Shown: positions 1,140-47,159 of the stretch, piece by piece
Layout: each line of letters opens with the position of its first letter
Position numbering within the stretch: position 1 is the first letter of the stretch
NCBI GenBank assembly: GCA_965658895.1
Contig: CBFHUR010000006.1
Span: forward strand, 50,131-114,130
DNA: 64,000 bases
DNA from: Candidatus Binatia bacterium
GTDB lineage: Bacteria > Desulfobacterota > Binatia > UBA12015
Reading direction: 5' to 3'
The notes under the pieces: model-generated
Seen by the model: the letters and a program-made list of their open reading frames with translations, nothing else
Database searches by the model: none
Told to the model about the DNA's origin: nothing
Made by a program: the position numbers and the translations under genes

Positions 1140-1142
1140 CAG

Positions 1143-10291: not shown

Positions 10292-13162
<2,871 letters not shown>

Positions 13163-25800: not shown

Positions 25801-27069
25801 ATGGACGCCTTGTTCGATTTTCGGCAGGCCGGTTGCCGGGTGCGGCGCTTGCCACGGAGGCCTCTGTTCCGTACCCAACGATCGGTGAAGTGGTGTTCGG
25901 CACTTTCGACCGATGACGATATCGTGAGCGCGACGCGTTCGGTCGTCGATACGGTCCACGCGGGGATGGGGCCTCAGGAGCCAAATCTGGTGCTTTTGTT
26001 CGTTTCGGATGGCCACGCCGAGCACTACGGGGAGGTCGCTGCTCTGGTGGGCGGGGAATTCCCGGCGGCGCTGATCATCGGCTGCACTGCGCGCGGCGTG
26101 ATTGGCGGAGGTCTCGAGATCGAGTCCTCGGGGGCCTTGCCGGGAGTAACCTTGAACCCCTTTCATCTCGATGCTGAGGAATTGCCCGAGGCGGAACGGG
26201 CGTCGGCATTCTGGTCGCAGCGTTTTGGCGGGCTGGTGGGCGAGGATCCATGTTTCCTCGTGTTGGCGGATCCGTTCTCGATGGACGTGGAATCGATGGT
26301 GCGTGGCCTCGAAGCCGCCTTTCCCGGTGCGCCCGCGATCGGAGGTCTGGCAAGCGGGGGCGGGGCTCCTGGTGAGAATGCCTTGTATATTGGCAGCGAT
26401 GTGCACCGCAGTGGTGCTGTAGGCATCGCGCTCTCGGGCAATATCCTGCTCGAGACCGTCGTTGCGCAAGGATGCCGCCCGGTTGGTCTCCCGATGTTCG
26501 TGACGCGCGCGCGAGAAAATATTCTGTTCGAGCTTGATGGAAGGCCCGCGCTGCAGGTCGCCAATGAAGTCATCGAGAGCCTTTGCGAGAGTGATCAGAT
26601 GGCCGCGCATCAGGCGCTCCTGCTGGGTTTGGGTATGGGGGACGGTCAAGGGCCGTTCGGTCAGGGGGATTTCCTCATGCGGAACCTCGTTGGCAAGGAC
26701 GAGCCGTCGGGGTCCCTTCTGGTCGGAGCGATGCTCGATGAAAAGCAGGTCGTGCAATTCCAGCTTCGAGATGCGACCGCGGCGCGCGAGGAGCTTCAGG
26801 CTTCGCTGTCGCAGGTCGGCGGCGGTTTTGCGGGCGCAGTCCTTCTGTCTTGCCTCGGCCGCGGTGAGGGTCTCTACGGCTGCGCAAACCATGATTCGGA
26901 TCAGGTGCGCGCTCGCTGCGGAGAGATCCCGGTGGCGGGTTTCTTTGCGGAAGGGGAGGTCGGTCCGGTGGGTGGAGAAACCTTCGTCCACGGCTACACG
27001 AGTGTGATCGGATTGTTTCGGAGCCGAGACTCCGAAACGGCCTCAGTTGAGGTAACCGAGGGCTCTTAG
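25801..27069 (+). CDS. FIST (N+C) domain sensory protein
   Basis: 'SALSTDDDIVSATRSVVDTV...NLVLLFVSDGH' matches the FIST-N start and 'AGFFAEGEVGP' matches FIST-C. The start may be GTG at 25885. Confidence 0.65.
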   Translation: MDALFDFRQAGCRVRRLPRRPLFRTQRSVKWCSALSTDDDIVSATRSVVDTVHAGMGPQEPNLVLLFVSDGHAEHYGEVAALVGGEFPAALIIGCTARGVIGGGLEIESSGALPGVTLNPFHLDAEELPEAERASAFWSQRFGGLVGEDPCFLVLADPFSMDVESMVRGLEAAFPGAPAIGGLASGGGAPGENALYIGSDVHRSGAVGIALSGNILLETVVAQGCRPVGLPMFVTRARENILFELDGRPALQVANEVIESLCESDQMAAHQALLLGLGMGDGQGPFGQGDFLMRNLVGKDEPSGSLLVGAMLDEKQVVQFQLRDATAAREELQASLSQVGGGFAGAVLLSCLGRGEGLYGCANHDSDQVRARCGEIPVAGFFAEGEVGPVGGETFVHGYTSVIGLFRSRDSETASVEVTEGS

Positions 27070-29100
27070 GGACTCCTCCATCCGTTGCGGGATGGCTTGA
27101 TCGTCCATCGAGTTGCCACGGTCCTTGCCGGTGAGGTCTTCTCGAATCTTGGCGCTTTCCCTCCGGTGGGCCTCGATGATTGCCTGGCGGTCGGGTGGCA
27201 GCGTGGGCTGCTTGATCGTGTGCCATTCGAACGGGTCGGTCTCGAGCGGGTAGTTGCGGGTCTCCTCGTCGGAGTAGATCGATTTCCAGCTCTGGTTCCG
27301 CGCGCCAAGAGCTCCTTTTTGATGCCACGAGAAATAGATCTCACGGTTGGGTGCGATCGCCGTGCCGAACATCGCGTCGCGGAGGCTCCGGCCCTGGCCT
27401 TGCGGGAGTCCGGGAAGTTGCAGAAGCTCCAGCAAGGTTGGAGCAACGTCGGTCAAGCTGGCACTGCCGGCAACCTCGACTCCCTCCGGAATGCCCGGCC
27501 CGCGCAGGATCAGCGGAATCCGGAGTTGTTCGTCGTGGAAGGCGAACCCGTGCCCGGGCAAGCTATGTTCGCCAAAGGATTCGCCGTGATCGGAGAGCAA
27601 GATGACCAATGTGTTCTTGCTGAGTCCCGTCTTGTCCAGTGTGTCGAGAATCTGCTCGACCAGAGAATCCGCCTCGCGGATCGTCCGATCATAGCGATCG
27701 ACATGCTTCTGTTGGGGGTCGGGGACGTAGGGGAGCGGACCGCCGTTTTTCCAGTGGTTGTCGTTGCGGAACATTGCATCGAACTCGGGGCTGGAATCAT
27801 AGGGGTCATGGGTTTGGTAGGTATGAAGAAACAAAAAGAATTGCTGATCGACGTTTTTTTTCAGGTACTCTTCCGCCCGGGCGAAACTCACGGGTCCCAG
27901 CTTTTCGCTGACGACGGATTGCTCGGTAAACGCGTCAAAGCCGCGCCAGAAACCGAAGAGACCCGAGACCAGCGCATTTTCGGTGATGGCATCGGTTTGA
28001 TAGCCGGCGGCCTGGAGGCTCTCGGCCAGCGTGGTTACCGGGGAACCGGGTCGCAGGCGTCCGCGGACTGGCTGGGCATCGGGGTAGAGTCCGGTGAAGA
28101 GCGAGAGGTGGGAGACGTCAGTTTGCGGGAAGGTGCTGAAGACGTCGAGGAACGTTGTGCCCTCATCCATCAGGCGGTCATCAATCGCCGGTGTGGTCTG
28201 GCGTGGGTAGCCGTACCCCGACATATGATCGGCGCGCAAGGTGTCAAGGCAGATCAGCAGTACGTTGGGTTGCCGCACCTGCTGGAGCGAGCGGGTCCTG
28301 ACTTCGGGCCATGCCCAAAGACCGCGCGTTGAGGGCTGGCCGTCCGGATCGGTGACGCGCAGAGAAAGCTCGCATTGCTCGCCGCCTTGCGGGACGGCGA
28401 CCCGAGCGGATCGCCAGCCGGTGCCTGGCTCGGTATCGACGCGTCCCTCACCGAGAAGTGCGGTGCCTGGCCGTCCATCGCAGGCGAGATCGGCCTGGTA
28501 GCGCAGGGGCGGATCGGGCACGGCCCCCGCCGTGGGCGTAGAGCCAAAGTGGAATTGCAGTTCGGATTGCGCGGGGATCGCAAATCCATAGCTCCGGAGT
28601 TCGCTGGGGGCCGGTGTGGTCAGGAAGAGGCGCGCATTCATGAGCCCTTCCGCGCCGCGACCGCGTTCGTCTCGGATGATCACTCGGTAGCCATCCTGGT
28701 CTGGCTCGATACTCCAACCCTTTTCGATACGACGCCAGAAAACTTTATCCTGCAGCCCCTTGGCGATGTTATTGTCGCTGCTGGCCAGACCGGCAGCGAA
28801 GGTCTGGATGCTGAGATTGGCGCGCCGGATGTCGTCGGGTGCGATCTGGATGGAAAATTGCGCGACGCCGTCCTCGAGGGGGATGCCGATCTGTTCGGTA
28901 TGGAGTTCTTCGCCGACCAGGCCGAGCACCGGGCGGGCGGTGGCTCCGATGATGGATCGGGCAATTGGTTGGTCCGGGTCCATCCCGAACTGTTCGGGTC
29001 CGAGTCGCTGTTCGACTTGCCACCCCGGCGGGGGCTGGCTGCAACTGGCGATCAGAGACGCCAGCGTCAGGAGTCCAATGGTGCGAATCACGGTGGCCAT
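27043..29100 (-). CDS. sulfatase-superfamily (alkaline-phosphatase-like) lipoprotein, Thr-type; N-terminal ~300-aa domain of unknown function
   Basis: The lipobox 'LASLIASC' follows the Met at 29100 (CAT 29098-29100). Sulfatase-family motifs 'LLICLDTLRADHMSGYG' and 'LLSDHGESFGEH' are present. Thr, not Cys/Ser-x-P-x-R, sits at the formylglycine position ('TDVSHLSLFTG'). The protein ends in 'LRALGYLN'. Confidence 0.75.
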   Translation of the reverse strand: MATVIRTIGLLTLASLIASCSQPPPGWQVEQRLGPEQFGMDPDQPIARSIIGATARPVLGLVGEELHTEQIGIPLEDGVAQFSIQIAPDDIRRANLSIQTFAAGLASSDNNIAKGLQDKVFWRRIEKGWSIEPDQDGYRVIIRDERGRGAEGLMNARLFLTTPAPSELRSYGFAIPAQSELQFHFGSTPTAGAVPDPPLRYQADLACDGRPGTALLGEGRVDTEPGTGWRSARVAVPQGGEQCELSLRVTDPDGQPSTRGLWAWPEVRTRSLQQVRQPNVLLICLDTLRADHMSGYGYPRQTTPAIDDRLMDEGTTFLDVFSTFPQTDVSHLSLFTGLYPDAQPVRGRLRPGSPVTTLAESLQAAGYQTDAITENALVSGLFGFWRGFDAFTEQSVVSEKLGPVSFARAEEYLKKNVDQQFFLFLHTYQTHDPYDSSPEFDAMFRNDNHWKNGGPLPYVPDPQQKHVDRYDRTIREADSLVEQILDTLDKTGLSKNTLVILLSDHGESFGEHSLPGHGFAFHDEQLRIPLILRGPGIPEGVEVAGSASLTDVAPTLLELLQLPGLPQGQGRSLRDAMFGTAIAPNREIYFSWHQKGALGARNQSWKSIYSDEETRNYPLETDPFEWHTIKQPTLPPDRQAIIEAHRRESAKIREDLTGKDRGNSMDDQAIPQRMEESLRALGYLN

Positions 29101-29110
29101 GTTCGGGGTC

Positions 29111-29920
29111 TCACGGTCGCAGGTAGAGGGTAGCTGCCGAAACACGTGTCTCCTCGCGGTTGCTTTCGAGTCTGAATTGCAGCTCGGATTCGTCGGCTTT
29201 TTGCTCGATGGCGCGGAAGGAAAGTTGTTCACCAGGACCGCTGAAGGCACGAATCTTTACGCCACGGAGCTCTCGGATCTCGGGCAGCGAGCCGTCGGGT
29301 CGAGCATAGGCCTTTCGAGTCGCATCGATCTGAGTCTGCAGCAGCAAGGTGGCTGGAAAGACCGGTTGGCGGGGAAAGTGATCTCCATAGATGATAGACT
29401 CCTCGGGAAGACGAAAGCTGCCCGCGAGGCCCTTTCCGGATTCGCCGGGCTCAAGCAGGATGGTGGGTTGGTAGTCTGCCGGCTCGATGGCCCGGCGGGG
29501 TGCGATCCCGTCGGCGCATAGTTCCTCGAAGAGCCGTTTCACGCGGTTCTTGTCGTCGAATTCTTCCATCGGCAGCAGGGGGCCGATCGCACGTTGCAGC
29601 GAGAGACAGGGGGTCCCCTCGCTACTGGCGATTCCGTGATAGGAGATTGCTTGACGCCTGATGGCGGTGATCGTCACCTGGATCTCCAGAGGTGCTCCGG
29701 GTGCCGGTACCCGCAGGACTTCCACGAGGCCGGCAGAGGCCGCTACCGGGCGATGATCGAATTCGAGTTCCGGAATTGTTGCCCAGGAGGCGAGTTGGCC
29801 TACGGCCTCGACCAGCAGGCCGAGAGGCAGTGCCTCGGCGCCAGCTCCTGGCTGGAGGACCCCCGTGGCTTGCTCTCCTGGTCGGATCGAGAGGATTTGA
29901 TCAATCAGTTGGAAAGACAT
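29111..29920 (-). CDS. double hotdog-fold protein, FabA/FabZ-like dehydratase
   Basis: The C-terminal half 'DHFPRQPVFPATLLLQTQIDA' resembles the FabZ active-site motif (HFPxxPVxPGxL). The N-terminal half has a second degenerate hotdog repeat. It lies immediately upstream of the sulfatase-like lipoprotein on the same strand. Confidence 0.5.
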   Translation of the reverse strand: MSFQLIDQILSIRPGEQATGVLQPGAGAEALPLGLLVEAVGQLASWATIPELEFDHRPVAASAGLVEVLRVPAPGAPLEIQVTITAIRRQAISYHGIASSEGTPCLSLQRAIGPLLPMEEFDDKNRVKRLFEELCADGIAPRRAIEPADYQPTILLEPGESGKGLAGSFRLPEESIIYGDHFPRQPVFPATLLLQTQIDATRKAYARPDGSLPEIRELRGVKIRAFSGPGEQLSFRAIEQKADESELQFRLESNREETRVSAATLYLRP

Positions 29921-30009
29921 TTCTACAAGCCCGAAAATGCTTTACCATAAAGTGTGATGCTTTTCCGATCGGGACCTGGATGCGGCTCGTCGGAAACATT
30001 CATTCGCAT

Positions 30010-32013
30010 ATGAAATCGAACAAGAACCGACGGATTCCCTGTTTTATTCTCGCTCTGGCGCTGCTGTCCCTGCCGCAGCTTGCGCAAGCGGGCGACGAAC
30101 TCGACCGGCGGGTGAAGGCGACCGGTTCGGTGCGTGTGATGGTACGGTTGGCGCTACCTGAGGCACCAGCCATGGCGTCTGCTGCAGACCGCGCGAAGGA
30201 CCGTCGCGAGCGGATCGCCCGCGCCAGCAACCGCGTGGCATCTCCCCTCCGGAAACAGCGGGCGGGTGGTGTCGTGCGCCGCTTCTCGGAGGTTCCCTGG
30301 GTCGCTGTCGAGGTGGATGCCAAAGGTCTCGCCGACCTTCGGGAATCGTCTCACGTCCAATCGATGAGGCTGGATCGCCGTGAACGGATTCAATTACGAG
30401 AGTCCTCGGAACTTGTGGGCGCTTCCACCGTGCATCGTCGCGGGGTCTCGGGTCAAGGTTGGTCCATCGGGATTCTGGACACCGGAGTTGAGGCCGCGCA
30501 TCCCTTTCTTGCAGGTCGCGTTCGGGGGGGTGCGTGCTTTTCGGCTGATGCCAGTTGCCCGAACGGCCAGACGACCATGATCGGGCCCGGCGCCGGCGAG
30601 CCCTGTGATTTCGGGGAGAGTTCCTGTGGTCACGGGACCCACGTTGCCGGAATCGCAGCGGGGCAGGGAGTCTCAATTGCAGGAATGGCTCCGGCGGCCG
30701 AAATCATCCCCGTCCAGATCTTCACCGAGTTCACCGGCGAGGATTGCGAGGATATGGATGAGGACCCCTGTGCGCTGGCCTACCTCTCCGACATCACCAG
30801 CGGGCTTGAGTATCTCTACTCGATTCGCAACGAGGTTCGGATCGCTGCGATCAACCTCAGCATCGGGGGCGACCTCTATTCCTCTGTGTCGGAGTGCGAG
30901 GCCGCAGATCCGCGGACCGAGATTGTCGGGTTGTTGCGCGCTGCAGGGATCGCCGTGGTCGCCGCGGCCGGCAATGAGAGTTCGACCGATTCCCTGACCA
31001 CGCCGGGATGCCTCTCGGATGTCATCAGTGTCTCGTCGACCAATGACGTGGACGAGATCTCGTCGTTTTCGAACACAGCCGAATTTCTGGACTTCTTTGC
31101 GCCGGGGGCTCAGATCGTCTCATCGGTGCCCTTTGGGAACTATTCGAGCATCTGGGGTTCTTCACAAGCAGCACCCCATGTGGCGGGTGCCTATGCGTTA
31201 TTATTCGAAGCCCTCGGTCAGTCGTCGCTCGAGCTGAGCAGCGAGATGCTGCGTGCTTCGGGTGAACCGATCCCGGTGAGGAATCTGCGTCGGGATATTC
31301 CCCGGCTCCAGGTTGATCGGGCTCTCGACCTGCTGGAACTGGATCGCCGCGGTACCGGTCTGCAGCAGACACCCGACGGTGAGCGGATCTTGCTGAGCAA
31401 GGATCTGGCCGGCGAGCGGTGGGCCATCGTGTTGAATCTGGGTGATGGTTCGGTTTCGGGTAACGTCTTTCTGGAAGATGGCAGTGACCCGGCCTTTGTC
31501 TCCTGCGTCGCCTCCGGGGAGGCGTCGCGGAATGGGTATCTGTCTTTCGCGTGTTCGGGAGCCTCGCAGTGTCGGTCGGGTTGCCAGCCCGAGGATTGGA
31601 CGTCGCTCGGGTCGGTGACCTTACCCGAGTCCTTCTTTTCGCCGCGACCGCGGTATCCCCTGCCGGAACCGTTGGTGCAACCGGGCGGGCGCGCTTCGGA
31701 CTCGCAGGCGGGTGTCCGCGAAATTCCAGGTCAGGATCGCGTTCTGGTCAGCAAGGATGCTGGCGGGAAGCGCTGGGCGATTGCCTGGAACGAGGACGGA
31801 ACGGTCACGGGTAATGTCTATGATCCGGAGGGAGGTGCTCCACAATTTGTCTGGTGTTCCGACCTGGGGAACGATGGGAATCCTGACCTCGCGGCGCGAA
31901 TCTTCCGATTCCGCTGCGCGGGTTCCGATCCATGCTTTGAGGGTTCCTGTCGCGCGGAGAACTGGACGGACCTCGGCGCGGTCGAGTTGCCGGGATCCTT
32001 TTTTCAGCCCTGA
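30010..32013 (+). CDS. secreted subtilisin-like serine protease (peptidase S8) with two C-terminal tandem repeat domains
   Basis: Signal peptide 'MKSNKNRRIPCFILALALLSLPQLAQA'. S8 catalytic triad motifs 'GILDTGV' (Asp), 'CGHGTHVAG' (His) and 'GSSQAAPHVAGA' (Ser). ATG at 30010. Confidence 0.85.
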   Translation: MKSNKNRRIPCFILALALLSLPQLAQAGDELDRRVKATGSVRVMVRLALPEAPAMASAADRAKDRRERIARASNRVASPLRKQRAGGVVRRFSEVPWVAVEVDAKGLADLRESSHVQSMRLDRRERIQLRESSELVGASTVHRRGVSGQGWSIGILDTGVEAAHPFLAGRVRGGACFSADASCPNGQTTMIGPGAGEPCDFGESSCGHGTHVAGIAAGQGVSIAGMAPAAEIIPVQIFTEFTGEDCEDMDEDPCALAYLSDITSGLEYLYSIRNEVRIAAINLSIGGDLYSSVSECEAADPRTEIVGLLRAAGIAVVAAAGNESSTDSLTTPGCLSDVISVSSTNDVDEISSFSNTAEFLDFFAPGAQIVSSVPFGNYSSIWGSSQAAPHVAGAYALLFEALGQSSLELSSEMLRASGEPIPVRNLRRDIPRLQVDRALDLLELDRRGTGLQQTPDGERILLSKDLAGERWAIVLNLGDGSVSGNVFLEDGSDPAFVSCVASGEASRNGYLSFACSGASQCRSGCQPEDWTSLGSVTLPESFFSPRPRYPLPEPLVQPGGRASDSQAGVREIPGQDRVLVSKDAGGKRWAIAWNEDGTVTGNVYDPEGGAPQFVWCSDLGNDGNPDLAARIFRFRCAGSDPCFEGSCRAENWTDLGAVELPGSFFQP

Positions 32014-32843
32014 GCTGGTTGGGGGAGTCGCGCGCAGAATTCAGCGAGGCCTTCCTCCCAGGGAGGCAGATGGATGGGACGGGCTTTCGTCGTGATCAGG
32101 GGGGCGTAGGCGGGACGCTTTGCCGGTCGCGGGAAAGCGTCGGTGCCCACCGCTTGCAGGTCGACCTCAAGGGCTAGGAGGCGGAGCAGTTCTTTTGTGA
32201 ACCCGAACCAGCTGGTCTCGCCGCTGCCGGCCAGATGCCAGGTTCCGTAGTCGCTGCGGTCGATCAGAGCCGCGATTGCCTTCGCCAGATGCGGAGCGTA
32301 AGTGGGGGACCCGACCTGATCGTCGACCACGCGGAGATTGCCACTGGCGGCCAGGCGGATCATCGTGCGGGGAAAGTTTGCGCCCTCTTCGTGGAAGACC
32401 CAAGCCGTGCGAGCGATATGGTGGCGCGGGTTAATCAGCCGGACGGCCTCTTCGCCGGCCAGCTTGCTGGCGCCGTAGACCGATGCTGGACGGGGCGTAG
32501 CGGTTTCATCGTAGGGGCTCGTGGCCGTTCCATCGAAGACATAATCGGTCGAGACATGGATGAGACCAGCCCCCAGAGCGGCGGTGGCCTCGGCAAGATT
32601 ACGCGGCCCCGCGGCGTTCACGCGATAGGCCGCCGATACCTCTGTCTCGGCAGCATCAACCTGGTTCCAGGCGGCCGCGTTGATGACCCACTCGGGCCGA
32701 TGACGGCCGATCACCTCGGCGGTCTGGGCATTGTCGCTGATATCGAGCATCTGCCGATTGCAGGAGATGATTTCGTGGCCGGCCAGCGCCGCCGGCAGGG
32801 AGCGGCCGAGTTGTCCGTCGGCACCGGTCACCAGAATTTTCAT
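32004..32843 (-). CDS. rmlD: dTDP-4-dehydrorhamnose reductase
   Basis: '[13 protein letters not shown]' Rossmann motif and RmlD length. The ATG overlaps the rmlC stop. Confidence 0.85.
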   Translation of the reverse strand: MKILVTGADGQLGRSLPAALAGHEIISCNRQMLDISDNAQTAEVIGRHRPEWVINAAAWNQVDAAETEVSAAYRVNAAGPRNLAEATAALGAGLIHVSTDYVFDGTATSPYDETATPRPASVYGASKLAGEEAVRLINPRHHIARTAWVFHEEGANFPRTMIRLAASGNLRVVDDQVGSPTYAPHLAKAIAALIDRSDYGTWHLAGSGETSWFGFTKELLRLLALEVDLQAVGTDAFPRPAKRPAYAPLITTKARPIHLPPWEEGLAEFCARLPQPAQG

Positions 32844-33403
32844 GGCACGCTCGTCCAAAGCTCCTGGAGAACGCTCTTCCATGCCGCAAGCGGTTTGCCG
32901 GCGCGGTCTTTCTCCGAGAGGGTGGGGTTCCCCACCGGCCATTCGACGCCGACGGCCGGGTCATTCCAGATCAGGCAGAGCTCATGGCTGGGATCATAGA
33001 TATCCGAGCATTTATATTCGACTTGTGCCGAATCGCTGAGCACGCAGAAGCCATGCGCGAAGCCAACGGGGACATAGATTTGCCGAAAATTTTCCGCCGA
33101 GAGTTCGACGGAAAGCCAGCGACCAAAGGTCCGCGAGGACGGTCGGATATCGACCACGACATCGAGGATCGCGCCTTCGATGGCCCGGACGAGTTTTGCT
33201 TGTGGATGGGTGAGTTGGGCGTGGAGTCCGCGCAGTGTGCCCCGAGCGCTGCGCGAGTGGTTGTCCTGCACGAAGGTGTCCGGAATTCCCGCTTCGCGGT
33301 ACCGATCGGCGTGGTAGGTCTCGACGAAAAAACCCCGGTCATCGCCGTGGACCTTGGGGTCGACCAGGAGGACGCCGGAGAGGTCTGTCGGGGAGACGTT
33401 CAA
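32840..33403 (-). CDS. rmlC: dTDP-4-dehydrorhamnose 3,5-epimerase
   Basis: '[21 protein letters not shown]...RGLHAQ...[10 protein letters not shown]' cupin motifs. The proposed TTG start overlaps the rmlA stop (TTGA); the track ORF extends into rmlA. Confidence 0.8.
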
Positions 33404-34293
33404 CCTTCGGGCCCCTCCTGGGCCAGCATCCGGATCAGATACTGTCCGTAGGATGTTTTCGCGAGCGGCTGGGCCAATCGCTCCACATCGGAAGCCGAGA
33501 TATAGCCTCGCCGCCAGGCGATCTCTTCCAGACATGCGACTTTCAGGCCCTGACGTTCCTCAATTGCCTGAATGAAGTTTCCGGCCTGCAGCAGGGCTTC
33601 GTGGGTGCCGGTGTCGAGCCAGGCGAGCCCGCGACCCATTCGTTCGACTTGAAGGTCGCCGCTGGCAAGATAGGCGCGATTGACGTCGGTGATTTCAAGC
33701 TCGCCGCGAGGCGATGGGTTGAGTCCGCGAGCAATCTCGACGATGCGGTTATCATAGAAATAGAGCCCGGTGACGGCCCACGAGGAACGGGGCTCGAGGG
33801 GTTTTTCTTCCAGCCCGATCGCACTTCCCGATCCATCAAATTCCACCACGCCGTATCGCTCAGGGTCCGAGACCCAGTAGCCGAATACGGTGGCTCCTTT
33901 CTCGCGGCTTCCGGCGCGTTGCAGCATCTCGGTAAGGCCCTGGCCGTAGAAGATATTGTCCCCGAGAGCGAGAGCCGCACGACCGCCCTGGAGGAAATCC
34001 TCTGCAATCACAAATGCCTGGGCGATACCTTCCGGGCGCTCCTGGACCGCATATTGAAGGGAAATCCCGAGGTCGGAACCATCGCCGAGCAGGCGCTGGA
34101 ATGCGGGTTGCTCATGCGGTGTCGTGATGACCAGGATCTCGCGTATGGACGCCTGCATGAGCGTCGATAGCGGGTAGTAGACCATCGGTTTGTCGTAGAT
34201 CGGCAGGAGCTGCTTGCTGGTCGCCCGGGTTACCGGGTGCAGGCGCGTGCCGGCGCCGCCAGCGAGCAGGATTCCGCGAATGCTTGCACTCAT
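33400..34293 (-). CDS. rmlA: glucose-1-phosphate thymidylyltransferase
   Basis: '[40 protein letters not shown]' is the canonical RmlA N-terminus. Confidence 0.9.
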
Positions 34294-35375
34294 GATCGAC
34301 TCCCCAGGCCCAGACGGGCCCGCTCGGTTGGGTCCTCCTGAACTGTGTGACACCAATCCTGATGCGCGAGGTACCAGGCAACGGTCATGCGAAAGCCTTC
34401 GTCGACCCCGACCGAAGGTCGCCACCCAAGCTCTCGGACGGCCTTGCTTCCATCGATCGCGTAGCGCCGGTCATGTCCGGGTCGGTCGGTTACAAACCGA
34501 CGCAGCTCCGAGTAGCTTTTCAGTCCCCGGTCCCGGAGAGCTGCATTCTCGTGCGCGGGGCGTTGGTCTTCGAGAAGTTCGCAGATGGCGTCGACCACCT
34601 GTAAATTGGTGCGTTCGCCACCGCCCCCGAGGTTATATTTCTCGCCAGCGACACCCTTGCGGAGCACCGTGAGAATTCCATCGCAATGGTCTTCCACGTA
34701 GATCCAGTCCCGCACATTGCTGCCATCACCATAGATCGGGAGATCGGCAGCATCGACGGCGTTGAGGATCATCAAGGGGATGAGTTTCTCGGGAAATTGG
34801 TAAGGGCCGTAGTTGTTGGAGCAGTTCGTCAGGAGAGTGGGCACGCCGTAGGTGTGGAACCAGGCGCGCACCAGATGGTCGGCCGAGGCTTTGCTTGCCG
34901 CATAGGGCGAGTTTGGCGCATAGGGTGTGGTCTCGGAGAAGGCCCCTTGCGGCCCGAGACTCCCGTACACCTCGTCAGTCGAGACATGGAGGAAGCGGAA
35001 AGCATCGCGGTCTTCTCCTGTGAGCGATTCATGGAGTCGTCGTGCCGCTTCGAGCAACTGGAAGGTGCCGAGAATATTGGTGCGGAGAAACTCATCCGGA
35101 CTTTCGATCGAGCGATCCACATGGGATTCTGCTGCAAAGTTGACAATCCAGCGGGGCTTTTCCTCGAGGATCAACTGGTGGGTCCGGTCAGCGTCGGCAA
35201 TATCACCCTCGACAATTGTAAGACGTTGCTTGTCGAGACCTGCCAGCGAGTCTCGATGGCCTGCGTAGGTAAATTTGTCGAGGACTAGGATCCGGGCATC
35301 GGTCCGCTCGAGAGCCATGCGGACGAAGTTGACGCCGATAAATCCAGCCCCACCGGTGACGAGCATGGTTTCCAT
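34290..35375 (-). CDS. rmlB: dTDP-glucose 4,6-dehydratase
   Basis: '[15 protein letters not shown]' and '[15 protein letters not shown]' (YxxxK). It overlaps rmlA by 4 nt. Confidence 0.9.
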
Positions 35376-35441
35376 GTCGTTTTGCTTACCCGAGGTCCTC
35401 GTGGGTCGCCACCGCCGGGGAGAAGGAACGTGGCTCCCGGG

Positions 35442-37013
35442 TCAGGATGAGGGGGCGTGGCCCGGGCCCAGCAGGTCGAGCAGGGATTTGACGGGTTGAA
35501 ATGTCTCGCGGGGGACCTCGACAAAGATCGTCGTCCATCCGGCCATCGAACCGTTCCACAGGCCTGGGTGCTCCAGCGCAAGAAGATCGCGGCCTTCGCT
35601 GGATTTTTTTGCGACGAAGACCGCCTCGGTGTCGACGAAATCACCGAGATCAAACGGCTGTCCCGCGGCATCGCGCAAGGCGCAGACCATATCGGTAGGA
35701 TTGAAATGGGTGGCCTCCTCCAAGTTGCGGGTTTGCTCGGGGTCGTCGGGGTCGATCTCGGCGGTCTCCACGATCTGCCGCGAGACGCTGCCATCATGGG
35801 CGCGCACCCAGAACGGACCGCCCCCGGGGTCGCCGGTGTTGCCAACGACGCCGCAGACGCGCATCGGCCGGCCGGCTACCTCCTCGAGGAGCGCTGGCAC
35901 GGGCTTGTCGAGCGCAAGGCCCAGTTCTTCGTTCAGGAAGTTCCCGGCAGCCTCCAGCACCGAGGGTTCGTTCGGGGACCTCTGGAGCTTCTCACGCCAT
36001 TGCAGAGTCTCGCGCTGCAGTTGGGCGAGCAGTCCGCCCAGAATTCGTCGCCAGTGAAGGATCGGCTCGCGTCGGTCGTCCGGCACGATATTGTCGATGT
36101 TCTTGATGAAGACGAAATCCCCGTCGAGTTGGTCGAGATTGTAGAGCAGCGAGCCGTGCCCTCCCGGGCGGAAGAGGATCTCTCCGTCTCCGGTTCGGAA
36201 AAGCTCTCCGTTCGCGTCCAGCGCAATCGTGTCCGTGGAGGGCGCCTGAGTAGAGAAGCTATGTCGGAATTCAATCGCCTGTGTTTTCTGGATTGCGGGC
36301 GCGACGCGGGAAAGGGTCTGCTCAAACTGGTCCTGGTGCTGGGGGGAGACGGTGAAATGCACTCGAGCGTGGCCATCGTGGTCCGCCAGTAGCGAGCCGG
36401 CTTCACGCAGGTGTTCCTCGAAGGCCGTACGAGCGGCGTTCGGGTAGCGGTGAAATGGAAGTAAGCCCTTGGGCTGGGCTGGCAAATTCAGGGCCTGGGC
36501 GTCGAGCAACGCGTCAACCAGCGGTGCATAGTTCCCTGACCGGATCGTGGTCTCCAGTCCTGTCTCGGTTTCGTCGAGATAGCGCGCGAGGTCATCCTCG
36601 ATTGCGAGGCGGTCTATCGAGGAAAACGTCGTCAGGACATCGAGGTCCTCGGGGGCGTCGGAGGACTCCAGGCTCTGCCGATCGAGCGCTCGCCCACTCG
36701 ATTTGGCCTCCAGCAGGGTCTTGAACATTCGCGAAGCGGCACCGGAGGCGGGGACAAAGGAGAGATAGCGTCCCGCGAGAGCTGCTTGCGAAAACTCGCT
36801 GAGGCAGGCTTCGATCTCCTTGGGGGACAGCTTTCGAACCCCGTCCCCGACGGTCGCGGGCCGATCGAGTACCCGGTAGGTCGCGCTGCCTGCGAGGAGG
36901 TCGCGCTGCCGGGCGACCTCCTCGAGGGTCAGGCCGCGGGCTTCAATTGCGGCCTGGTCGGCCTGATCGAGATGGAGATCGTTTGGTTCACGCATCACGG
37001 GGCGAGATAGCAT
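35442..37013 (-). CDS. DUF4301 family protein (putative UGPase/UAP-like sugar-1-phosphate nucleotidyltransferase fold)
   Basis: 523 aa. Motifs 'FVPASGAASRMF', 'FIKNIDNIV' and 'RPGGHGSLLYNL' resemble the nucleotide-binding, NxDN and PGHGD motifs of eukaryotic-type UDP-sugar pyrophosphorylases; this is inference. It is directly upstream of rmlBACD on the same strand. Confidence 0.55.
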   Translation of the reverse strand: MLSRPVMREPNDLHLDQADQAAIEARGLTLEEVARQRDLLAGSATYRVLDRPATVGDGVRKLSPKEIEACLSEFSQAALAGRYLSFVPASGAASRMFKTLLEAKSSGRALDRQSLESSDAPEDLDVLTTFSSIDRLAIEDDLARYLDETETGLETTIRSGNYAPLVDALLDAQALNLPAQPKGLLPFHRYPNAARTAFEEHLREAGSLLADHDGHARVHFTVSPQHQDQFEQTLSRVAPAIQKTQAIEFRHSFSTQAPSTDTIALDANGELFRTGDGEILFRPGGHGSLLYNLDQLDGDFVFIKNIDNIVPDDRREPILHWRRILGGLLAQLQRETLQWREKLQRSPNEPSVLEAAGNFLNEELGLALDKPVPALLEEVAGRPMRVCGVVGNTGDPGGGPFWVRAHDGSVSRQIVETAEIDPDDPEQTRNLEEATHFNPTDMVCALRDAAGQPFDLGDFVDTEAVFVAKKSSEGRDLLALEHPGLWNGSMAGWTTIFVEVPRETFQPVKSLLDLLGPGHAPSS

Positions 37014-37061
37014 GTCGCTGGTTGTCGGGAAACGGCTTGGTTTTGGGAACCTGCCCGCTTA

Positions 37062-37727
37062 GTGTACATGCGTACCGCTGGGAAACGTGAAATGGGCAAG
37101 GCAAGCGAACAGATCGGGTTGGGTGGAGATCCGGCCAACGGAACTTCGACGCGGATTCTGGACGCCGCAGAGGGGTTGTTTGCCGATGCGGGCTTTGCCG
37201 GCGTTTCCGTGCGTGAGATCGCAGGTGCGGTCGGCCTGAATCAGGCGAGCATCTACAACCATTTCTCGAGCAAACGGGCTCTCTACGAGGCGGTGCTTGA
37301 TCGGGGACTGCGTCCGCTGCAGGAGACGCTCGCAGCCGCCGCCTTGTCGCTGGATGCGCCCGATGCCGGCGGTCGGTTGCTCGAAGACCTTACCGAACAA
37401 CTATGGCGTTCGCCGAATCTGCCGCGCCTGATCCAGCGCGAGATCCTCGATGATGGCGAGTATCTCGAGCGGCTGGCGGAACAGTGGCTCCGGCCGATTG
37501 TCGAGGAGGGTCGTGGGGCGATGGAGAAGTCTTCCTGGGCGTCGAGTTGGGAGAGTGATGCCGACTCGCTGATCATCCTGCTGATGTACCATGTGATCTT
37601 CGGGTACTTTTTTTCGGCGCCGCTAACCCGTCGAGTTTTGGGTGTGGAGCCTGCCAGCGAGGAGATGCGCCACCGCCAGGTCGAGTTTCTCAAGCTGGTG
37701 GCGCAGCGATTGATGGTGTCGAGCTAG
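37062..37727 (+). CDS. TetR family transcriptional regulator
   Basis: HTH 'SVREIAGAVGLNQASIYNHFSSKRALY'. The start may be at 37092. Confidence 0.7.
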   Translation: MYMRTAGKREMGKASEQIGLGGDPANGTSTRILDAAEGLFADAGFAGVSVREIAGAVGLNQASIYNHFSSKRALYEAVLDRGLRPLQETLAAAALSLDAPDAGGRLLEDLTEQLWRSPNLPRLIQREILDDGEYLERLAEQWLRPIVEEGRGAMEKSSWASSWESDADSLIILLMYHVIFGYFFSAPLTRRVLGVEPASEEMRHRQVEFLKLVAQRLMVSS

Positions 37728-39987: not shown

Positions 39988-42900
39988 ATGATCATGCTGC
40001 TCCAGTTTCTGGCCATCGTTGTGATGATGGTGCTCACCAGCCGCCTGGCGGTCGAACCTCTCAAGGGTCGCTTGATGAATATCTTCAAGCTCCTGCTGAC
40101 CGTGGGCATGGTCTACCATTTGTTGTTCTGGCCTGTCAGCGATGGGGCCGGTGGTACCGTGCCGGCATGGGATCTGATGTTGGAGCTGCTGCGCAACATC
40201 GACCCCGTCGTCTTCTGGACGTTTGCGGGGATCGGTGCCGGGGTTCGATTTCTGGGAGTTTTGGCCTCGATGTATCGCTGGCGATTGGTGCTGCGGGGCC
40301 AGAAGATCGAACTTCCCTTCTGGCATATCCTCGGAGCCTTCCTGATCGGTCGTGCGATCGGATTTTTCCTGCCCAGCACGGCAGGACTCGATGGATACAA
40401 ACTTTATGATGCGGCCCGATTCAGCGGCCGCACGGTTGAAGTCACGGCGGGCACGGTGCTCGAAAAGGTTCTGGGTATCACCGGGATTTTCCTCACCTAT
40501 CTGGTGGCTCTTCCCTTCGGGATGTCGATTTTTGGTGAGAATGCGGTCACGGTCGCGCTGATCACAGTGCCTTTGGCGATTGCGATCATCGGTGGTCTGC
40601 TGACTCTGCTCTGGTTCCCCGGCGTGATCCAGTGGGTCATCGAGACGGTGCCTATTCCGGCAAAAGCTCAGATTGAAGGCCTGGTCCTGCGCACTTCGGC
40701 GGCCGCGGCTGCTTATCGCGACCAGAAAATGCTCGTTCTGGGGATGCTGGTGATGAGCTTTCTCTCGCATTTCTTCACCGCGGCCATGTACTTTTTCATG
40801 GCGATTGCCGTTGGTGCCGGGGCAGATGCCGTATTTTGGCCCGTCGTCTTCGGCTCCTCGATCCAGATCTTCGCGACCGTTCTTGGCCCGACCATTGGTG
40901 GCATCGGCGTGCGCGAGGCCGCCCAGGTTCTTACCCTGGGCGCTCTGCTCGGGCCGATCGTGGCGGCGGTTTCGGCGACGCTCGGATTCTGGGTGGGCGA
41001 AGTACCGACCCTCTTCGGATTCCTCTTCTGGATGGTTCGGGGTCCTGATTACCGGCCGAGTTATTGCCGTGTAGACGGCAAGCAAGTTGACTACGAAGAA
41101 ACGGCCAAGATGGCCATGGAGCTCGAGACCGAAGAGGAACGCCAGGCACGCGAGGACCGCCAGGCGGCAGGCGATGTGGTTTCCGCCGCCGTTCTGGAGC
41201 AACCGACCCGACTGTTTGTGTCCAGCGGGCTTGGATTGGGTGCCGGGGTACTCTCGGGAATCTTGATCGGCACGATCGAGGCTATGGTGATTGGTGCTGG
41301 AGGCTTCGGACCGGAATCACAGGTCTTGTGGTACGGCCCGCTGCTTTACGCGGCTTTGCTCGGTGGCCTGGGGCTGCTGGGCGGCGCGGTCCTCAGCATC
41401 CTGCCGATGCAGGAGTCCGAGGTCCGTGGTTGGGTGCCGACTCTCGGCTTTGCCGCAACGCTGGTGCCGCTCGGGCTGGCGATCGTTGTCTTTCGGTTGA
41501 AGCGAGACGTCTATCTCGAGCAAATGCCTCCCCTTCCCGTGCTGCTCGGTGTGGTGGCTGGCGCGGGCGTGTTGGCGCTTGTGATTTTGATGTTCGGGCG
41601 ACGGTTTTTCCAATCCGGCGCCGGACGCATCGCGCGTCCGCTGCCGGCTTTGTCGCTCTTGCTGGTCGTGATGGCGGCCGGGGCGCTGTTGGGTCCGCGG
41701 GAACCGGCGGTTGTGGTGGAAGCCCGCACCGAGGTGCCGGCGCATCTGAGGGACCGCCCGAACGTGGTCCTGGTCATCGCCGATACGCTGCGGGCGGACC
41801 ATCTGGGCTCCTATGGGGATCCTCGTGGCCTGACGCCGAACCTGGATGCCATGGCGGATGAGGGCACTGTCTGGGAAGCCTTCGGGCAATCGTCGTGGAC
41901 CAAGCCGTCGGTAGCGACCATCCTGACCTCGCTCTACGCATCGACGCATGGTGCGATGAGCAAACCTTCGATCTTGCCGGAAGTCACAACCGTGGCGGAC
42001 GCCTTGCAGGCGGAGGGCTACGCGACGTCGGGTTTTGTTTCGAATGTCAATCTGGCGCCTTCGTTCAATTTCCAGCAGGGATTTGATGAATACACCTACT
42101 ATGCGCCCGACTATTTATTTGAGGCCGAGGAGTCTTCGTCGAAGCTGATTCTCTACCAGATCCTGCGGCCGCTCTATTTCAAGGTCATGGGCTCGCAATG
42201 GGTGGAGTTGTTCTACCAGGACTCGCGCACGGTGAATGCCGATGCTCTTCCCTGGCTCGAACGGCATAAGGACGATCGGTTCTTTGCCTTGCTGCATTAT
42301 ATGGACCCGCATGACCCTTATTTTGCCCACCCCTACGACGGACGCGGAATCGCAAGGGTCGAGAACCAGAACCCCGACCCGGAACAAGCCGCCGAGATGC
42401 TCGAGCTCTATGCGGGTGAGATTCAGTACATGGACGAGAGTTTCGGAGATTTGATTGCCACGCTCAAGGAGCATGACATCTACGATGATACGCTGATCGT
42501 CTTTACGGCCGACCATGGCGAAGAGTTTCAGGAGCACGGTGGCTGGTGGCATGGGACGACTCTTTACGAGGAGCAGGTTGCGGTTCCGTTGATCGCCAAG
42601 TTCCCGGCGGGGTCGCTGGTGCCTGCGCGGCCTCAGGGAGTTGGTCGTTTGCTGGATATCGCCCCGACGATTCTGGCCGCTTCCGGAACCGCGATTCCGC
42701 GCGAGTGGCAGGGTGCTGATCTGGCGTTGCCGATCCCCTCTCATCGCGTGGCGTTTGCCGAGGAGGACCATGAGGGCAATATCATTACGGCCGCCCGCAA
42801 TGCGCGCCTCAAGCTGATTCGAGCCAATGCAGGAAATCCCCGGGGGCTTCCGGAGCTGGAACTATTTGATCTGCAACGGGACCCCGGTGAACAGGAAAAT

Positions 42901-43056
42901 GTGGCCCCCGATCGCCCTGTGGAGGTCGAGGATCTGGATCGCGAGGTCGTCTCGATCACGACGGGTGCTGCTCAGGAAGCAGTGGCAAACGACGGCGAGG
43001 TCGAGATGGATGATGCCACCCGGGACCGACTGCGCGCGCTCGGCTATATCGAATAG
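39988..43056 (+). CDS. fusion protein: MprF-type flippase-like (lysylphosphatidylglycerol-synthase TM region/UPF0104) domain + multi-TM linker + Thr-type sulfatase-superfamily (LtaS/EptA/OpgB-like) domain
   Basis: Residues ~1-330 carry 'YRWRLVL', 'GLDGYKLY' and 'GGIGVREAA', characteristic of the LPG_synthase_TM/flippase-like family. Residues ~390-580 form a second TM block. The C-terminal ~440 aa carry 'VVLVIADTLRADHLGSYG', 'SSWTKPSVATILTSLYAS' (Thr at the nucleophile position) and 'VFTADHGEEFQEHG', and end in 'LRALGYIE'. Confidence 0.7.
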   Translation: MIMLLQFLAIVVMMVLTSRLAVEPLKGRLMNIFKLLLTVGMVYHLLFWPVSDGAGGTVPAWDLMLELLRNIDPVVFWTFAGIGAGVRFLGVLASMYRWRLVLRGQKIELPFWHILGAFLIGRAIGFFLPSTAGLDGYKLYDAARFSGRTVEVTAGTVLEKVLGITGIFLTYLVALPFGMSIFGENAVTVALITVPLAIAIIGGLLTLLWFPGVIQWVIETVPIPAKAQIEGLVLRTSAAAAAYRDQKMLVLGMLVMSFLSHFFTAAMYFFMAIAVGAGADAVFWPVVFGSSIQIFATVLGPTIGGIGVREAAQVLTLGALLGPIVAAVSATLGFWVGEVPTLFGFLFWMVRGPDYRPSYCRVDGKQVDYEETAKMAMELETEEERQAREDRQAAGDVVSAAVLEQPTRLFVSSGLGLGAGVLSGILIGTIEAMVIGAGGFGPESQVLWYGPLLYAALLGGLGLLGGAVLSILPMQESEVRGWVPTLGFAATLVPLGLAIVVFRLKRDVYLEQMPPLPVLLGVVAGAGVLALVILMFGRRFFQSGAGRIARPLPALSLLLVVMAAGALLGPREPAVVVEARTEVPAHLRDRPNVVLVIADTLRADHLGSYGDPRGLTPNLDAMADEGTVWEAFGQSSWTKPSVATILTSLYASTHGAMSKPSILPEVTTVADALQAEGYATSGFVSNVNLAPSFNFQQGFDEYTYYAPDYLFEAEESSSKLILYQILRPLYFKVMGSQWVELFYQDSRTVNADALPWLERHKDDRFFALLHYMDPHDPYFAHPYDGRGIARVENQNPDPEQAAEMLELYAGEIQYMDESFGDLIATLKEHDIYDDTLIVFTADHGEEFQEHGGWWHGTTLYEEQVAVPLIAKFPAGSLVPARPQGVGRLLDIAPTILAASGTAIPREWQGADLALPIPSHRVAFAEEDHEGNIITAARNARLKLIRANAGNPRGLPELELFDLQRDPGEQENVAPDRPVEVEDLDREVVSITTGAAQEAVANDGEVEMDDATRDRLRALGYIE

Positions 43057-45319: not shown

Positions 45320-45350
45320 GGCAACAGGCGATAGAAGCGAGGATGGTGAT

Positions 45351-47159
45351 ATGCGCTACCAGCCAATCGAGAACTACGGGATTATCGGCAATTTGGAGAC
45401 CATTGCTCTGGTGGGGCTGAATGCTTCCATCGACTTTTTCTGTTTCCCGAATTTTGATTCACCTTCCGTCTTTGGGGGGCTTCTGGACGCGGCGTCCGGG
45501 GGATGCTTCTCGGTGGAAGCCGAGCTGCCGGAGGCTCGGCATACGCAGCTCTATCTTCCCGAGACCAATGTGCTCCTGACCCGAATGCTGGCGGCTGACG
45601 GCGTGGCCGAGATCAGCGATTTCATGCCCATCGGGGAGGAGTCGGGGCGGTGCGCCCTGGTGCGTCGAATTCGCACCGTTCGAGGACGGGTTCGATTCCG
45701 GATCCGTTGCGCGCCCCGGTTCGACTACGGGCGAGCTTCCCACGATACCGACCGGACAAGCGATGGCGTGGTCTTCTCGTCGCGTGGTCCGGATGGAACA
45801 GCGCTGCGATTGCGCAGCGGCCATGCCCTGCGTGTCGAGGACGGGGCTGCGCTGCTGGAGGTCGAGCTTGCTGCGGGTGAATCCGTGCATCTGGTGCTCG
45901 ATGACGCCCATGCCCCAGCGCATGGCGAGGATCTCGGGAATTGGTGTGACGCCGCCTTTGACGAAACCGTTCGGTATTGGCGGGGCTGGTCGGATCGATC
46001 GAACTATGATGGGCGCTGGCGCGAGATGGTCCAACGCTCGGCCTTGACGTTGAAGCTGCTTACCTCACGACGATACGGATCTCTGGTGGCAGCCCCCACG
46101 ATGGGTTTGCCCGAAGAAGTCGGTGGCGAGCGGAATTGGGATTATCGCTATACCTGGATCCGCGATTCGGCTTTTACGGTCTATGCACTTCTTCGGCTGG
46201 GCTACACCGAGGAGGCGGGCAATTTCATGCATTGGGTCGAAGCCCGTTGTGAGGAGTTGCAGCCCGACGGTGCCCTGCAGATCATGTACGGCATTGATGG
46301 TCGGCACCGACTCGAGGAATCCGAACTCGCGCATTGGGAAGGGTACCGGGGCTCGTCGCCGGTCCGGCTGGGCAATGGCGCCTATGATCAGCTGCAGCTG
46401 GATATTTATGGCGAGCTGATCGACTCGATTTACCTCTACGACAAATACGGTACTCCGGTCTCGTTCGATTTTTGGGAGAATATCGTGCGCCTGGTGGAGT
46501 GGGTGTGCACGAACTGGCAGCGTCCGGACGAAGGCATCTGGGAGGTGCGCGGCGGTCAGCAGGAGTTTTTGTATTCTCGCCTGATGTGTTGGGTCGCAAT
46601 CGATCGGGCCCTGCGGCTGGCGGAGAAGCGCTCGTTGCCGGCGCCAGTGGTGCGTTGGCGTGGCGTGCGCGACGCGATCCACCACGAGATTGTGAACCAA
46701 TTCTGGTCCGAGAAGCGCTCCGCCTTCGTGCAATACAAGGGCTCGGAGACGATCGATGCGTCGTGCCTGCTGATGCCGCTGGTGCGTTTTATCAGCCCCA
46801 GGGACCCGCGCTGGCTCTCTACCCTCGATGCGGTGACAAATGATCTGGTCGATGATTCTCTGGTCTATCGGTATCGCAATGAACAGGCGGCCTCCGACGG
46901 GCTCTCCGGTTCCGAGGGGACCTTCAATATTTGCTCCTTCTGGTATGTCGAATGCCTCTGTCGAGCCGGGCAAGTGGAAAAGGCACAGCTGCTCTTCGAG
47001 AAGATGCTCGGTTACGCCAATCATCTCGGTTTGTATTCCGAAGAGTTGGGTCCCGCCGGCGAACATCTGGGGAACTTCCCGCAGGCTTTCACTCATCTGG
47101 GGTTGATCAGCGCGGCGTTCAGCTTGAATCGGAATCTTGAGGGAGGCTGGCGGCCCTGA
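45351..47159 (+). CDS. glycoside hydrolase family 15 (glucoamylase/trehalase-like)
   Basis: The N-terminal '[36 protein letters not shown]' is the GH15 N-domain signature, with an (alpha/alpha)6 region '[14 protein letters not shown]'. ATG at 45351. Confidence 0.8.

Follow-up and report, generated by a model that had tools for sequence, protein, structure and literature searches.

Organization of the DUF4301–rml locus

The window analyzed here is a 64-kb stretch (64,000 nucleotides) of contig CBFHUR010000006.1 from a Candidatus Binatia bacterium, and all coordinates below are window positions unless a locus name is given. Its central feature is a run of five consecutive minus-strand open reading frames (ORFs), in which a gene for a DUF4301 protein is followed by rmlB, rmlA, rmlC and rmlD. 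This study concerns the DUF4301 protein, which is predicted to be a nucleotidyltransferase related to UDP-glucose pyrophosphorylase (UGPase) and UDP-N-acetylglucosamine pyrophosphorylase (UAP). The ORF coordinates are those of a preliminary description of this DNA, and the genes are as follows.

37013..35442, minus strand: DUF4301 gene (PF14134), 523 amino acids (aa), predicted UGPase/UAP-type nucleotidyltransferase
35375..34290, minus strand: rmlB, dTDP-glucose 4,6-dehydratase, 361 aa; TIGR01181, 461.5 bits (cut-off, 365.1)
34293..33400, minus strand: rmlA, glucose-1-phosphate thymidylyltransferase, 297 aa; TIGR01207, 488.3 bits (cut-off, 360.65)
33403..32840, minus strand: rmlC, dTDP-4-dehydrorhamnose 3,5-epimerase, 187 aa, TTG start; TIGR01221, 233.7 bits (cut-off, 155.75)
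32843..32004, minus strand: rmlD, dTDP-4-dehydrorhamnose reductase, 279 aa; TIGR01214, 291.9 bits (cut-off, 224.05)

The dTDP-L-rhamnose pathway is complete and contiguous, as the preliminary description had stated, and each of RmlA–D scored above its NCBIfam equivalog cut-off. The 4-nt overlaps between the rml genes, also noted there, could be read directly from the sequence as ATGA (rmlB/rmlA), TTGA (rmlA/rmlC) and ATGA (rmlC/rmlD). The RmlC length of 187 aa recurs in syntenic relatives. The rmlBACD operon is an ordinary, textbook one that is already known, and there is nothing new in the rml genes themselves.

The DUF4301 gene lies upstream of rmlB on the same strand, as had been reported, with 66 nt between its stop codon and the rmlB start. 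A terminator scan of this gap gave no terminator-like hairpin on the minus (coding) strand, and DUF4301 is presumably co-transcribed with rmlBACD. A promoter scan of positions 31800–37300 gave no sigma-70-like site, and the window yielded no matches when scanned against Rfam and for tRNA genes. An alternative start of the DUF4301 gene is Met7 at 36995, and residues 1–9 had a predicted local distance difference test score (pLDDT) below 50 in the structural model described below.

Family assignment and predicted fold of the DUF4301 protein

The window protein matched PF14134 with 551.6 bits (cut-off, 27; E value, 2.5e-165), residues 17–519 corresponding to profile positions 2–506 of 507. A homologue search placed the size of the family at no fewer than 8000 clusters at 90% identity, every one of which carried PF14134, and the gene was present in at least 597 species-representative genomes of Bacteroidota, Desulfobacterota, Acidobacteriota, Ignavibacteria, Calditrichia and other groups. 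Proteins with 40–42% identity were also found on contigs of metagenome-assembled genomes (MAGs) labelled Nitrosopumilus sp. (L062) and Clostridia bacterium (L028), which lie outside the usual DUF4301 phyla; misbinning or horizontal transfer is possible in these two cases. The only recurrent second family was PF01704 (UDPGP), which matched the C-terminal third of the window protein (aa 413–515) with 16.3 bits, under the 22-bit cut-off (E value, 0.004), and gave similar sub-threshold matches in 7 of 38 homologues. These 38 homologues, which share 43–88% identity with the window protein, constitute alignment A1. When the DUF4301 protein was tested for the GalU/GalF type, neither PF00483 nor the galU model TIGR01099 matched it.

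The AlphaFold2 model of the protein had a pLDDT of 91.9 and a predicted template modelling score of 0.91. When it was searched with Foldseek, the top 50 matches were all UGPase, UAP or AGX, with E values of 2.5e-12 to 1.6e-10. The comparison values against DUF4301 were highest for Trypanosoma brucei UGPase (21.8), followed by T. brucei UAP (20.9), Spodoptera frugiperda UAP (20.8), human UGP2 (19.9), Entamoeba UAP (19.6) and the UDP-sugar pyrophosphorylase (USP) of Leishmania major (19.6); those for GlmU, GalU and a thymidylyltransferase were 17.5, 16.4 and 15.6, respectively. The predicted fold of the catalytic domain is therefore the nucleotidyltransferase core of UGPase, UAP and USP. The wider fold class includes the non-sugar nucleotidyltransferases MobA, CobY and IspD.

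Searches of Protein Data Bank (PDB) sequences with the single sequence and with a profile gave weak matches only, to ankyrin designs and to UGP2 (E values, 0.2–1.6). Where weak HMMER matches fell on PDB chains of nucleotidyltransferases, these were UGPases. The A1 profile aligned to human UGP2 (E value, 0.26; HMMER) in register with its NIDN motif and with RSRFLPVKTTSDLL, and it is this register that makes so weak an alignment useful.

Mapping of catalytic residues

AGX1 served as the reference for residue numbering, its sequence being identical to that of PDB entry 1jv1 over residues 1–453. A UAP1 profile (alignment A3) was built from representatives at 50% identity and compared with A1 by hhalign. 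A homologue set containing only vertebrate UAP1 was too uniform for a profile and was replaced by these representatives, and an hhalign comparison of the DUF4301 profile with the single AGX1 sequence gave a nonsense alignment and was discarded. The mapped features are listed below.

36723..36758, minus strand (aa 86–97): FVPASGAASRMF, predicted nucleotide-/phosphate-binding loop; G91 and R95 align with AGX1 G111 and R115; invariant in A1
36474..36722, minus strand (aa 98–180): helical insertion of about 85 residues with six helices (secondary structure of the model), between the loop and the P-K-G lysine
36459..36476, minus strand (aa 180–185): QPKGLL; K182 aligns with AGX1 K122, the phosphate-binding lysine (hhalign); invariant
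36237..36257, minus strand (aa 253–259): FSTQAPS; Q256 aligns with AGX1 Q196 (hhalign); invariant
36150..36170, minus strand (aa 282–288): RPGGHGS, P-x-G-H-G motif; G285 and H286 align with AGX1 G222 and N223 (hhalign); invariant
36084..36110, minus strand (aa 302–310): FIKNIDNIV, N-x-D-N motif; D307 and N308 align with AGX1 D253 and N254, and the motif also with NIDN of human UGP2 (HMMER alignment to residues 263–275 of PDB 3r2w, and hhalign)
35754..35777, minus strand (aa 413–420): QIVETAEI; E416 aligns with AGX1 E303 and the segment with LVEIAQV of UGP2; Q413, V415 and E416 invariant
35469..35501, minus strand (aa 505–515): FQPVKSLLDLL; K509 aligns with the lysine of F-L-P-V-K-T-T-S-D-L-L in human UGP2 (HMMER profile alignment to residues 322–422 of 3r2w, and the sub-threshold PF01704 match)

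The equivalent positions in the AGX1 and UGPase structures comprise the phosphate-binding arginine and lysine, the uracil-reading glutamine, the Mg/phosphate motif and the catalytic lysine; AGX1 Q196 is the glutamine that contacts uracil in the AGX1 structures. The base-reading glutamine, P-x-G-(H/N)-G, N-x-D-N and the catalytic-lysine motif F-x-P-(V/L)-K are all present in DUF4301 and invariant in A1. The invariant positions of A1 comprise the F-x-P-A-S-G-A-A-x-R-M loop, K182, Q256, R282-P-x-G-H-G and N305-x-D-N, followed in the C-terminal part by G397-G-G-P, Q413-x-V-E, E481 and K509-x-x-x-D-L-L. The three UGPase/UAP-like motifs pointed out in the preliminary description (aa 86–97, 282–288 and 302–310) are thus present and align with the family motifs. 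Because the key residues are invariant or nearly so among homologues as far as 43% identity from the window protein, the motif matches are not attributable to chance.

In the weak hhalign alignment, the loop P-A-S-G-A-A-S-R-M-F pairs with L-A-G-G-Q-G-T-R-L, so that the glycine and the arginine are kept and P-K-G is displaced; an alternative hhalign alignment joins DUF4301 residues 20–96 to UAP1 residues 34–116. The G-H-G form at RPGGHGS is the UGPase/USP variant, and the G-H-G, N-I-D-N and F-x-P-V-K-x-x-x-D-L-L forms together match UGPase/USP rather than UAP.

The helical insertion was not present in the compared UGPase and UAP sequences, and the spacing between loop and P-K-G in AGX1 is 4 residues. 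A weak run of profile matches to designed and natural ankyrin repeats (E values, 0.2–0.5; aa 143–240, positions 36293–36587) covers the end of the insertion and the first core strands and is probably spurious.

Comparison with known pyrophosphorylases

DUF4301 shows the same order of motifs as the PF01704 enzymes (UGP2, T. brucei UGP, UAP1/AGX1 and USP), namely a loop with arginine, P-K-G, glutamine, P-x-G-H-G, N-x-D-N, V-E, F-N and F-x-P-V-K. Its identity to any of these enzymes with a solved structure is 10–19%, and its loop reads S-G-A-A-S-R-M in place of G-G-x-G-T-x-M/L. Unlike in UGPase and UAP, the insertion parts the loop from P-K-G. The C-terminal beta-helix domain of UGPase and UAP is also absent, since the chain ends 14 residues past K509; the AlphaFold2 model had no strands predicted past residue 499. 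Given the low PF01704 score, the low identity, the insertion and the missing beta-helix domain, DUF4301 is treated here as UGPase/UAP-like in its working and not as a member of PF01704. The two also differ in distribution, as DUF4301 occurs in Bacteroidota, Desulfobacterota, Acidobacteriota and related phyla and the PF01704 comparators are of eukaryote type. What is new is therefore a deep-branching, insertion-bearing, single-domain cousin of UGPase and UAP.

The closest parallel in gene order is galF-rfbB-rfbD-rfbA-rfbC of Escherichia coli K-12, where a GalU/GalF-type gene stands directly upstream of the four rhamnose genes on the same strand, as DUF4301 does. The E. coli genes belong to an O-antigen cluster that also encodes transferases and a flippase, whereas the operon in the window stands alone, and the rml order is BDAC in E. 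coli and BACD in the window. Cyanobacteria have a further non-GalU UDP-glucose pyrophosphorylase, CugP, which has reportedly been characterized experimentally and assigned to a GDP-mannose pyrophosphorylase-like subfamily; it is much further in structure from DUF4301 than UGPase or UAP. RmlA, encoded two genes downstream of DUF4301, is likewise distinct, being a 297-aa PF00483 protein with a G-x-G-T-R-L loop, in contrast to the 523-aa protein of the UGPase/UAP branch.

Genomic neighbourhoods across the family

Gene neighbourhoods were examined in 160 loci. The first sample consisted of 80 loci kept from at least 597 confirmed in species-representative genomes, and the second of 80 Bacteroidota-type metagenome loci (L093–L172). 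In 6 of the 80 species genomes, rml genes stood directly beside DUF4301, in at least three arrangements.

DUF4301-rmlB-rmlA-rmlC: L022
DUF4301-DUF368-rmlB-rmlA-rmlC: L006
rmlB-rmlC-DUF4301, with no rmlA in the flanks: L012 and L074 (Thermoanaerobaculia)
rmlC-DUF4301: L043
rmlD-DUF4301: L002

With the background set at about 0.2%, the binomial P for this frequency is about 2e-8; three independent linkage events in 30 lineages still have a P of about 3e-5. The linkage, with the genes in varied order, is found in MAGs of Acidobacteriota, Desulfobacterales and other groups. The enrichment of DUF4301 near sugar-nucleotide genes, which the preliminary description had left to neighbourhood statistics, thus holds in part, as rml adjacency is far above chance and most DUF4301 genes are alone or have unrelated neighbours.

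A second context involves glycogen metabolism. A gene for a eukaryote-type GT3 glycogen synthase (PF05693) stands 16–31 nt upstream of DUF4301 on the same strand in loci of Cytophagales type and of Ichthyobacteriaceae. In L057 (3229–11506), and also in L059, L093 and L094, these two genes are part of an alpha-glucan cluster, in which GH57, GT5-like and GH31 genes lie on one strand and GT3 and DUF4301 are divergent from them.

Genes related to undecaprenyl phosphate recur as well. A DUF368/PopT-type translocase gene (PF04018) was located 33–85 nt downstream of DUF4301 on the same strand in L006, L019 and L045 and 1.5–2.4 kb away from it in L023, L055 and L064, and a BacA/UppP undecaprenyl-diphosphatase gene is divergent from rmlB-rmlC-DUF4301 in L012 (7354–8166) and L074 (5866–6678).

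In seven Flavobacteriaceae loci (L018, L034, L046, L052, L054, L066 and L076; about 8800–10001 in each), pnuC, a gene for the NadR kinase domain only (AAA_28, no adenylyltransferase domain) and DUF4301 follow one another on one strand, the kinase gene ending between 18 nt inside and 27 nt before the DUF4301 match. The Ichthyobacteriaceae locus L080 (7424–11593) has the GT3 glycogen synthase gene between the kinase gene and DUF4301. A Vut_1 vitamin-type transporter gene was found 34–63 nt downstream of DUF4301 in two Desulfobacterota loci. The main conserved neighbour in Bacteroidales is a divergent RelA/SpoT (p)ppGpp synthetase/hydrolase homologue, which lies immediately upstream of DUF4301 in 33 of the 80 second-sample loci (e.g., L155, 3664–5880); in six loci the next gene encodes a prokaryotic diacylglycerol/undecaprenol kinase (PF01219).

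Proposed function of DUF4301

Since the mapped catalytic residues are invariant across phyla, DUF4301 is very probably an active nucleotidyltransferase. It would bind a pyrimidine nucleoside triphosphate with Mg2+ in its Rossmann-like nucleotidyltransferase core, and the phosphate of a sugar 1-phosphate would attack the alpha-phosphate to give a nucleoside diphosphate (NDP)-sugar and pyrophosphate. In this scheme R95, K182 and K509 would be the phosphate-holding residues, and Q256 the one that reads the base. UTP is likely to be the nucleotide, and glucose-1-phosphate is our tentative choice of sugar. Taken as a whole, the best explanation, which we consider probable, is that DUF4301 is a single-domain protein related to, and much diverged from, the eukaryote-type UDP-sugar pyrophosphorylases and acts as a UGPase-like supplier of a UDP-hexose, the best guess being the conversion of glucose-1-phosphate to UDP-glucose.

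Glucose-1-phosphate is favoured on several grounds. The motif forms are UGPase-like, and the weak sequence matches point the same way. The alpha-glucan cluster calls for an NDP-glucose donor, and the rmlB-rmlC-DUF4301 arrangement puts DUF4301 where a glucose-1-phosphate nucleotidyltransferase would be expected. The E. coli galF-rfbBDAC cluster has the same logic, and non-orthologous UGPases such as CugP already exist (PMC7133116). DUF4301 would then be a non-orthologous counterpart of GalU/GalF, paralleling the two E. coli enzymes that draw on one glucose-1-phosphate pool. Because it is the first gene of DUF4301-rmlB-rmlA-rmlC-rmlD, the five-gene operon could deliver two activated sugars, UDP-glucose and dTDP-L-rhamnose, from a single pool of that precursor.

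The preliminary description had proposed that DUF4301 activates a second sugar-1-phosphate for the same glycan. As stated, this was not supported: neither the window nor its syntenic relatives have a glycosyltransferase, flippase or polymerase gene close to the operon, and the alpha-glucan/GT3 and rmlB-rmlC-DUF4301 contexts point instead to glucose-1-phosphate, which is RmlA's own precursor.

Several observations weigh against a UGPase-like supplier of UDP-glucose. The hhalign segments between DUF4301 and UAP1 are co-linear and individually weak (probability, 10%; best E value, 0.003); for this reason the residue mapping is based on their co-linearity together with the fold match, and homology is argued mainly from the fold comparison, even profile–profile scores being low. 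The remote-homology search and structure prediction suggested in the preliminary description thus yielded weak profile scores alongside the UGPase/UAP/USP core. On the sugar side, T417 stands for AGX1 Y304 and D441 for N327, residues unlike those of both UGPase and UAP, so that sugar specificity is not readable from the alignment. The genomic contexts are also diffuse, with most DUF4301 genes solitary or beside unrelated genes; 127 immediate flanking proteins fell into 206 Pfam families, none of which occurred more than 7 times, and there was no dominant partner. GT3 as a general neighbour of DUF4301 in Bacteroidota was a prediction that failed, as it was present in only 2 of 80 metagenome loci, both Marivirga-like. 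RmlA is already encoded in the window, which makes a second enzyme acting on glucose-1-phosphate plausible and not required. The searchable literature contained no characterized member and no biochemical data for the family, in agreement with the earlier remark that DUF4301 has no assigned function.

Alternative explanations

It is possible, and in our view unlikely, that DUF4301 activates a sugar other than glucose (GlcNAc-1-phosphate, galactose-1-phosphate or a uronic acid 1-phosphate) for the same rhamnose-containing envelope glycan, or that it is a promiscuous USP-like salvage enzyme. The S-R-M of its loop and its P-K-G-L do resemble the T-R-L and P-K-G-M of UAP, and the recurrent undecaprenyl-phosphate recycling genes (DUF368/PopT and BacA) would fit a role in the cell envelope. 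The UGPase-like G-H-G, N-I-D-N and P-V-K-x-x-x-D-L-L forms and the alpha-glucan cluster nevertheless point to glucose, and there are neither glycosyltransferase nor export genes near the operon. For GlcNAc in particular, bacterial UDP-GlcNAc normally comes from GlmU. The recurrence of pnuC, the kinase-only NadR gene and DUF4301 in Flavobacteriaceae suggests a different substrate altogether, namely a non-sugar phosphate such as nicotinamide mononucleotide (NMN), with DUF4301 standing in for the absent adenylyltransferase domain of NadR to complete the salvage of nicotinamide riboside. Such salvage requires an adenylyltransferase beside the kinase (PMC2330246), the Vut_1 gene downstream of DUF4301 in the two Desulfobacterota loci is compatible with a vitamin-related role, and MobA, CobY and IspD of the wider fold class do take non-sugar substrates. 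We nevertheless regard this as improbable: the pnuC linkage is limited to one family-level lineage and may be inherited synteny, because GT3 intervenes between the kinase gene and DUF4301 in L080, while the invariant uracil-reading glutamine and UGPase/UAP sugar-side motifs, as well as the rml and alpha-glucan contexts, would be left unexplained.

The E. coli parallel itself raises the question of activity, as galF occupies the equivalent position there and is annotated "low activity". DUF4301 might accordingly be a catalytically weak or inactive regulatory paralogue that modulates another pyrophosphorylase or binds a nucleotide sugar, and its S-G-A-A-S loop does depart from the G-G-x-G-T consensus. 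This is very improbable in view of the invariance of every mapped catalytic residue across phyla and of the genomic context, in which DUF4301 is a single gene, usually alone, with no partner pyrophosphorylase nearby and no adjacent PF00483 or PF01704 paralogue save RmlA in a minority of loci. Least credible of all is that the adjacency to rmlBACD is meaningless and DUF4301 an unrelated housekeeping gene sharing the transcript. Its neighbours in most genomes are indeed unrelated, with the divergent RelA/SpoT gene as the conserved one in Bacteroidales, but the rml linkage is kept down to 50% DUF4301 identity and recurs in other gene orders elsewhere, and a predicted sugar-nucleotide-forming fold beside a sugar-nucleotide pathway is unlikely to be a coincidence.

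Returning to the UGPase-like function, a wider consequence may be entertained, though we hold it to be doubtful: DUF4301 could be an unrecognized third type of bacterial NDP-glucose pyrophosphorylase beside GalU and CugP, one that resembles the eukaryotic UGPase, serves as donor enzyme for GT3 in Bacteroidota lacking GlgC, and feeds or partners the rhamnose pathway elsewhere, including in this organism. Bacteroidetes lack GlgC (PMC10395257) and have a eukaryote-type glycogen synthase (PMC10395257; PMC11046441), and the GT3 synthases of eukaryotes use UDP-glucose (PMC11046441). If the product is UDP-glucose, DUF4301 would fill a gap in this literature concerning the glucosyl donor of GlgC-less Bacteroidetes (PMC10395257; PMC11046441) and would add a third non-orthologous type to the bacterial UGPases. 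In any case, a large and widespread family is now placed in the UGPase/UAP branch, an assignment of fold that is readily reached by standard structure prediction, and the family could serve chemoenzymatic nucleotide-sugar synthesis.

Regulatory region and close relatives

A regulatory gene and a candidate operator lie upstream of DUF4301.

37062..37727, plus strand: TetR-family regulator gene (PF00440; E value, 1.8e-16), divergent from DUF4301
37030..37043, no strand assigned: AAACCAAGCCGTTT, imperfect palindrome and candidate TetR operator in the TetR/DUF4301 intergenic region

The starts of the two genes are 48–54 nt apart, and the divergent arrangement of TetR and DUF4301-rmlBACD is kept in relatives whose DUF4301 proteins are 50–66% identical to that of the window. 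The TetR protein is probably a regulator of the DUF4301–rml operon, which it would perhaps control from the intergenic region. An alignment of intergenic regions places AAACCAAGCCGTTT opposite a perfect palindrome, AAACGGATCCGTTT, in the relative L081. An inverted-repeat search of the spacer at seed 6 reported nothing, the palindrome being evident in the alignment only, and judged by this symmetry AAACCAAGCCGTTT is a possible TetR operator.

Around the operon, the same relatives also keep the genes for citrate synthase, the convergent S8 peptidase, an ApeI-like protein and a sulfatase; in one of them the arrangement is carried by a contig of 8.1 Mb, and a second is from a Tara Oceans marine sample. 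The closest citrate synthases that bear a name belong to MAGs labelled Deltaproteobacteria bacterium (85%) and Candidatus Binatia (about 74%). The other surroundings in the window are housekeeping or unrelated genes, including those for glycine dehydrogenase, RecQ, an AcrB pump, acyl-CoA dehydrogenase and GH15.

The 3' end of rmlD overlaps the convergent S8 subtilase gene (29692..32013, plus strand) by 10 nt (32004–32013). In Thermoanaerobaculia locus L074, DUF4301 likewise has an S8 peptidase gene (9967–11295) as its convergent neighbour, which hints at an old shared synteny. Positions 39988–43056 (plus strand) encode a 1022-aa fusion protein that joins an LPG_synthase_TM membrane domain to a sulfatase/phosphotransferase domain, and the operon is further flanked by genes for a second sulfatase-family protein (27043–29250, minus strand) and an ApeI-like dehydratase (29111–29920, minus strand). 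The fusion, sulfatase and ApeI-like genes were syntenic in every close relative examined, and their products may modify the envelope. Two long ORFs had no Pfam match, at 195–2672 (plus strand, 825 aa) and 43118–45319 (plus strand, 733 aa); the latter adjoins a GH15/trehalase-like gene (45156–47159) and corresponds by position to a 677-aa domainless gene in L084.

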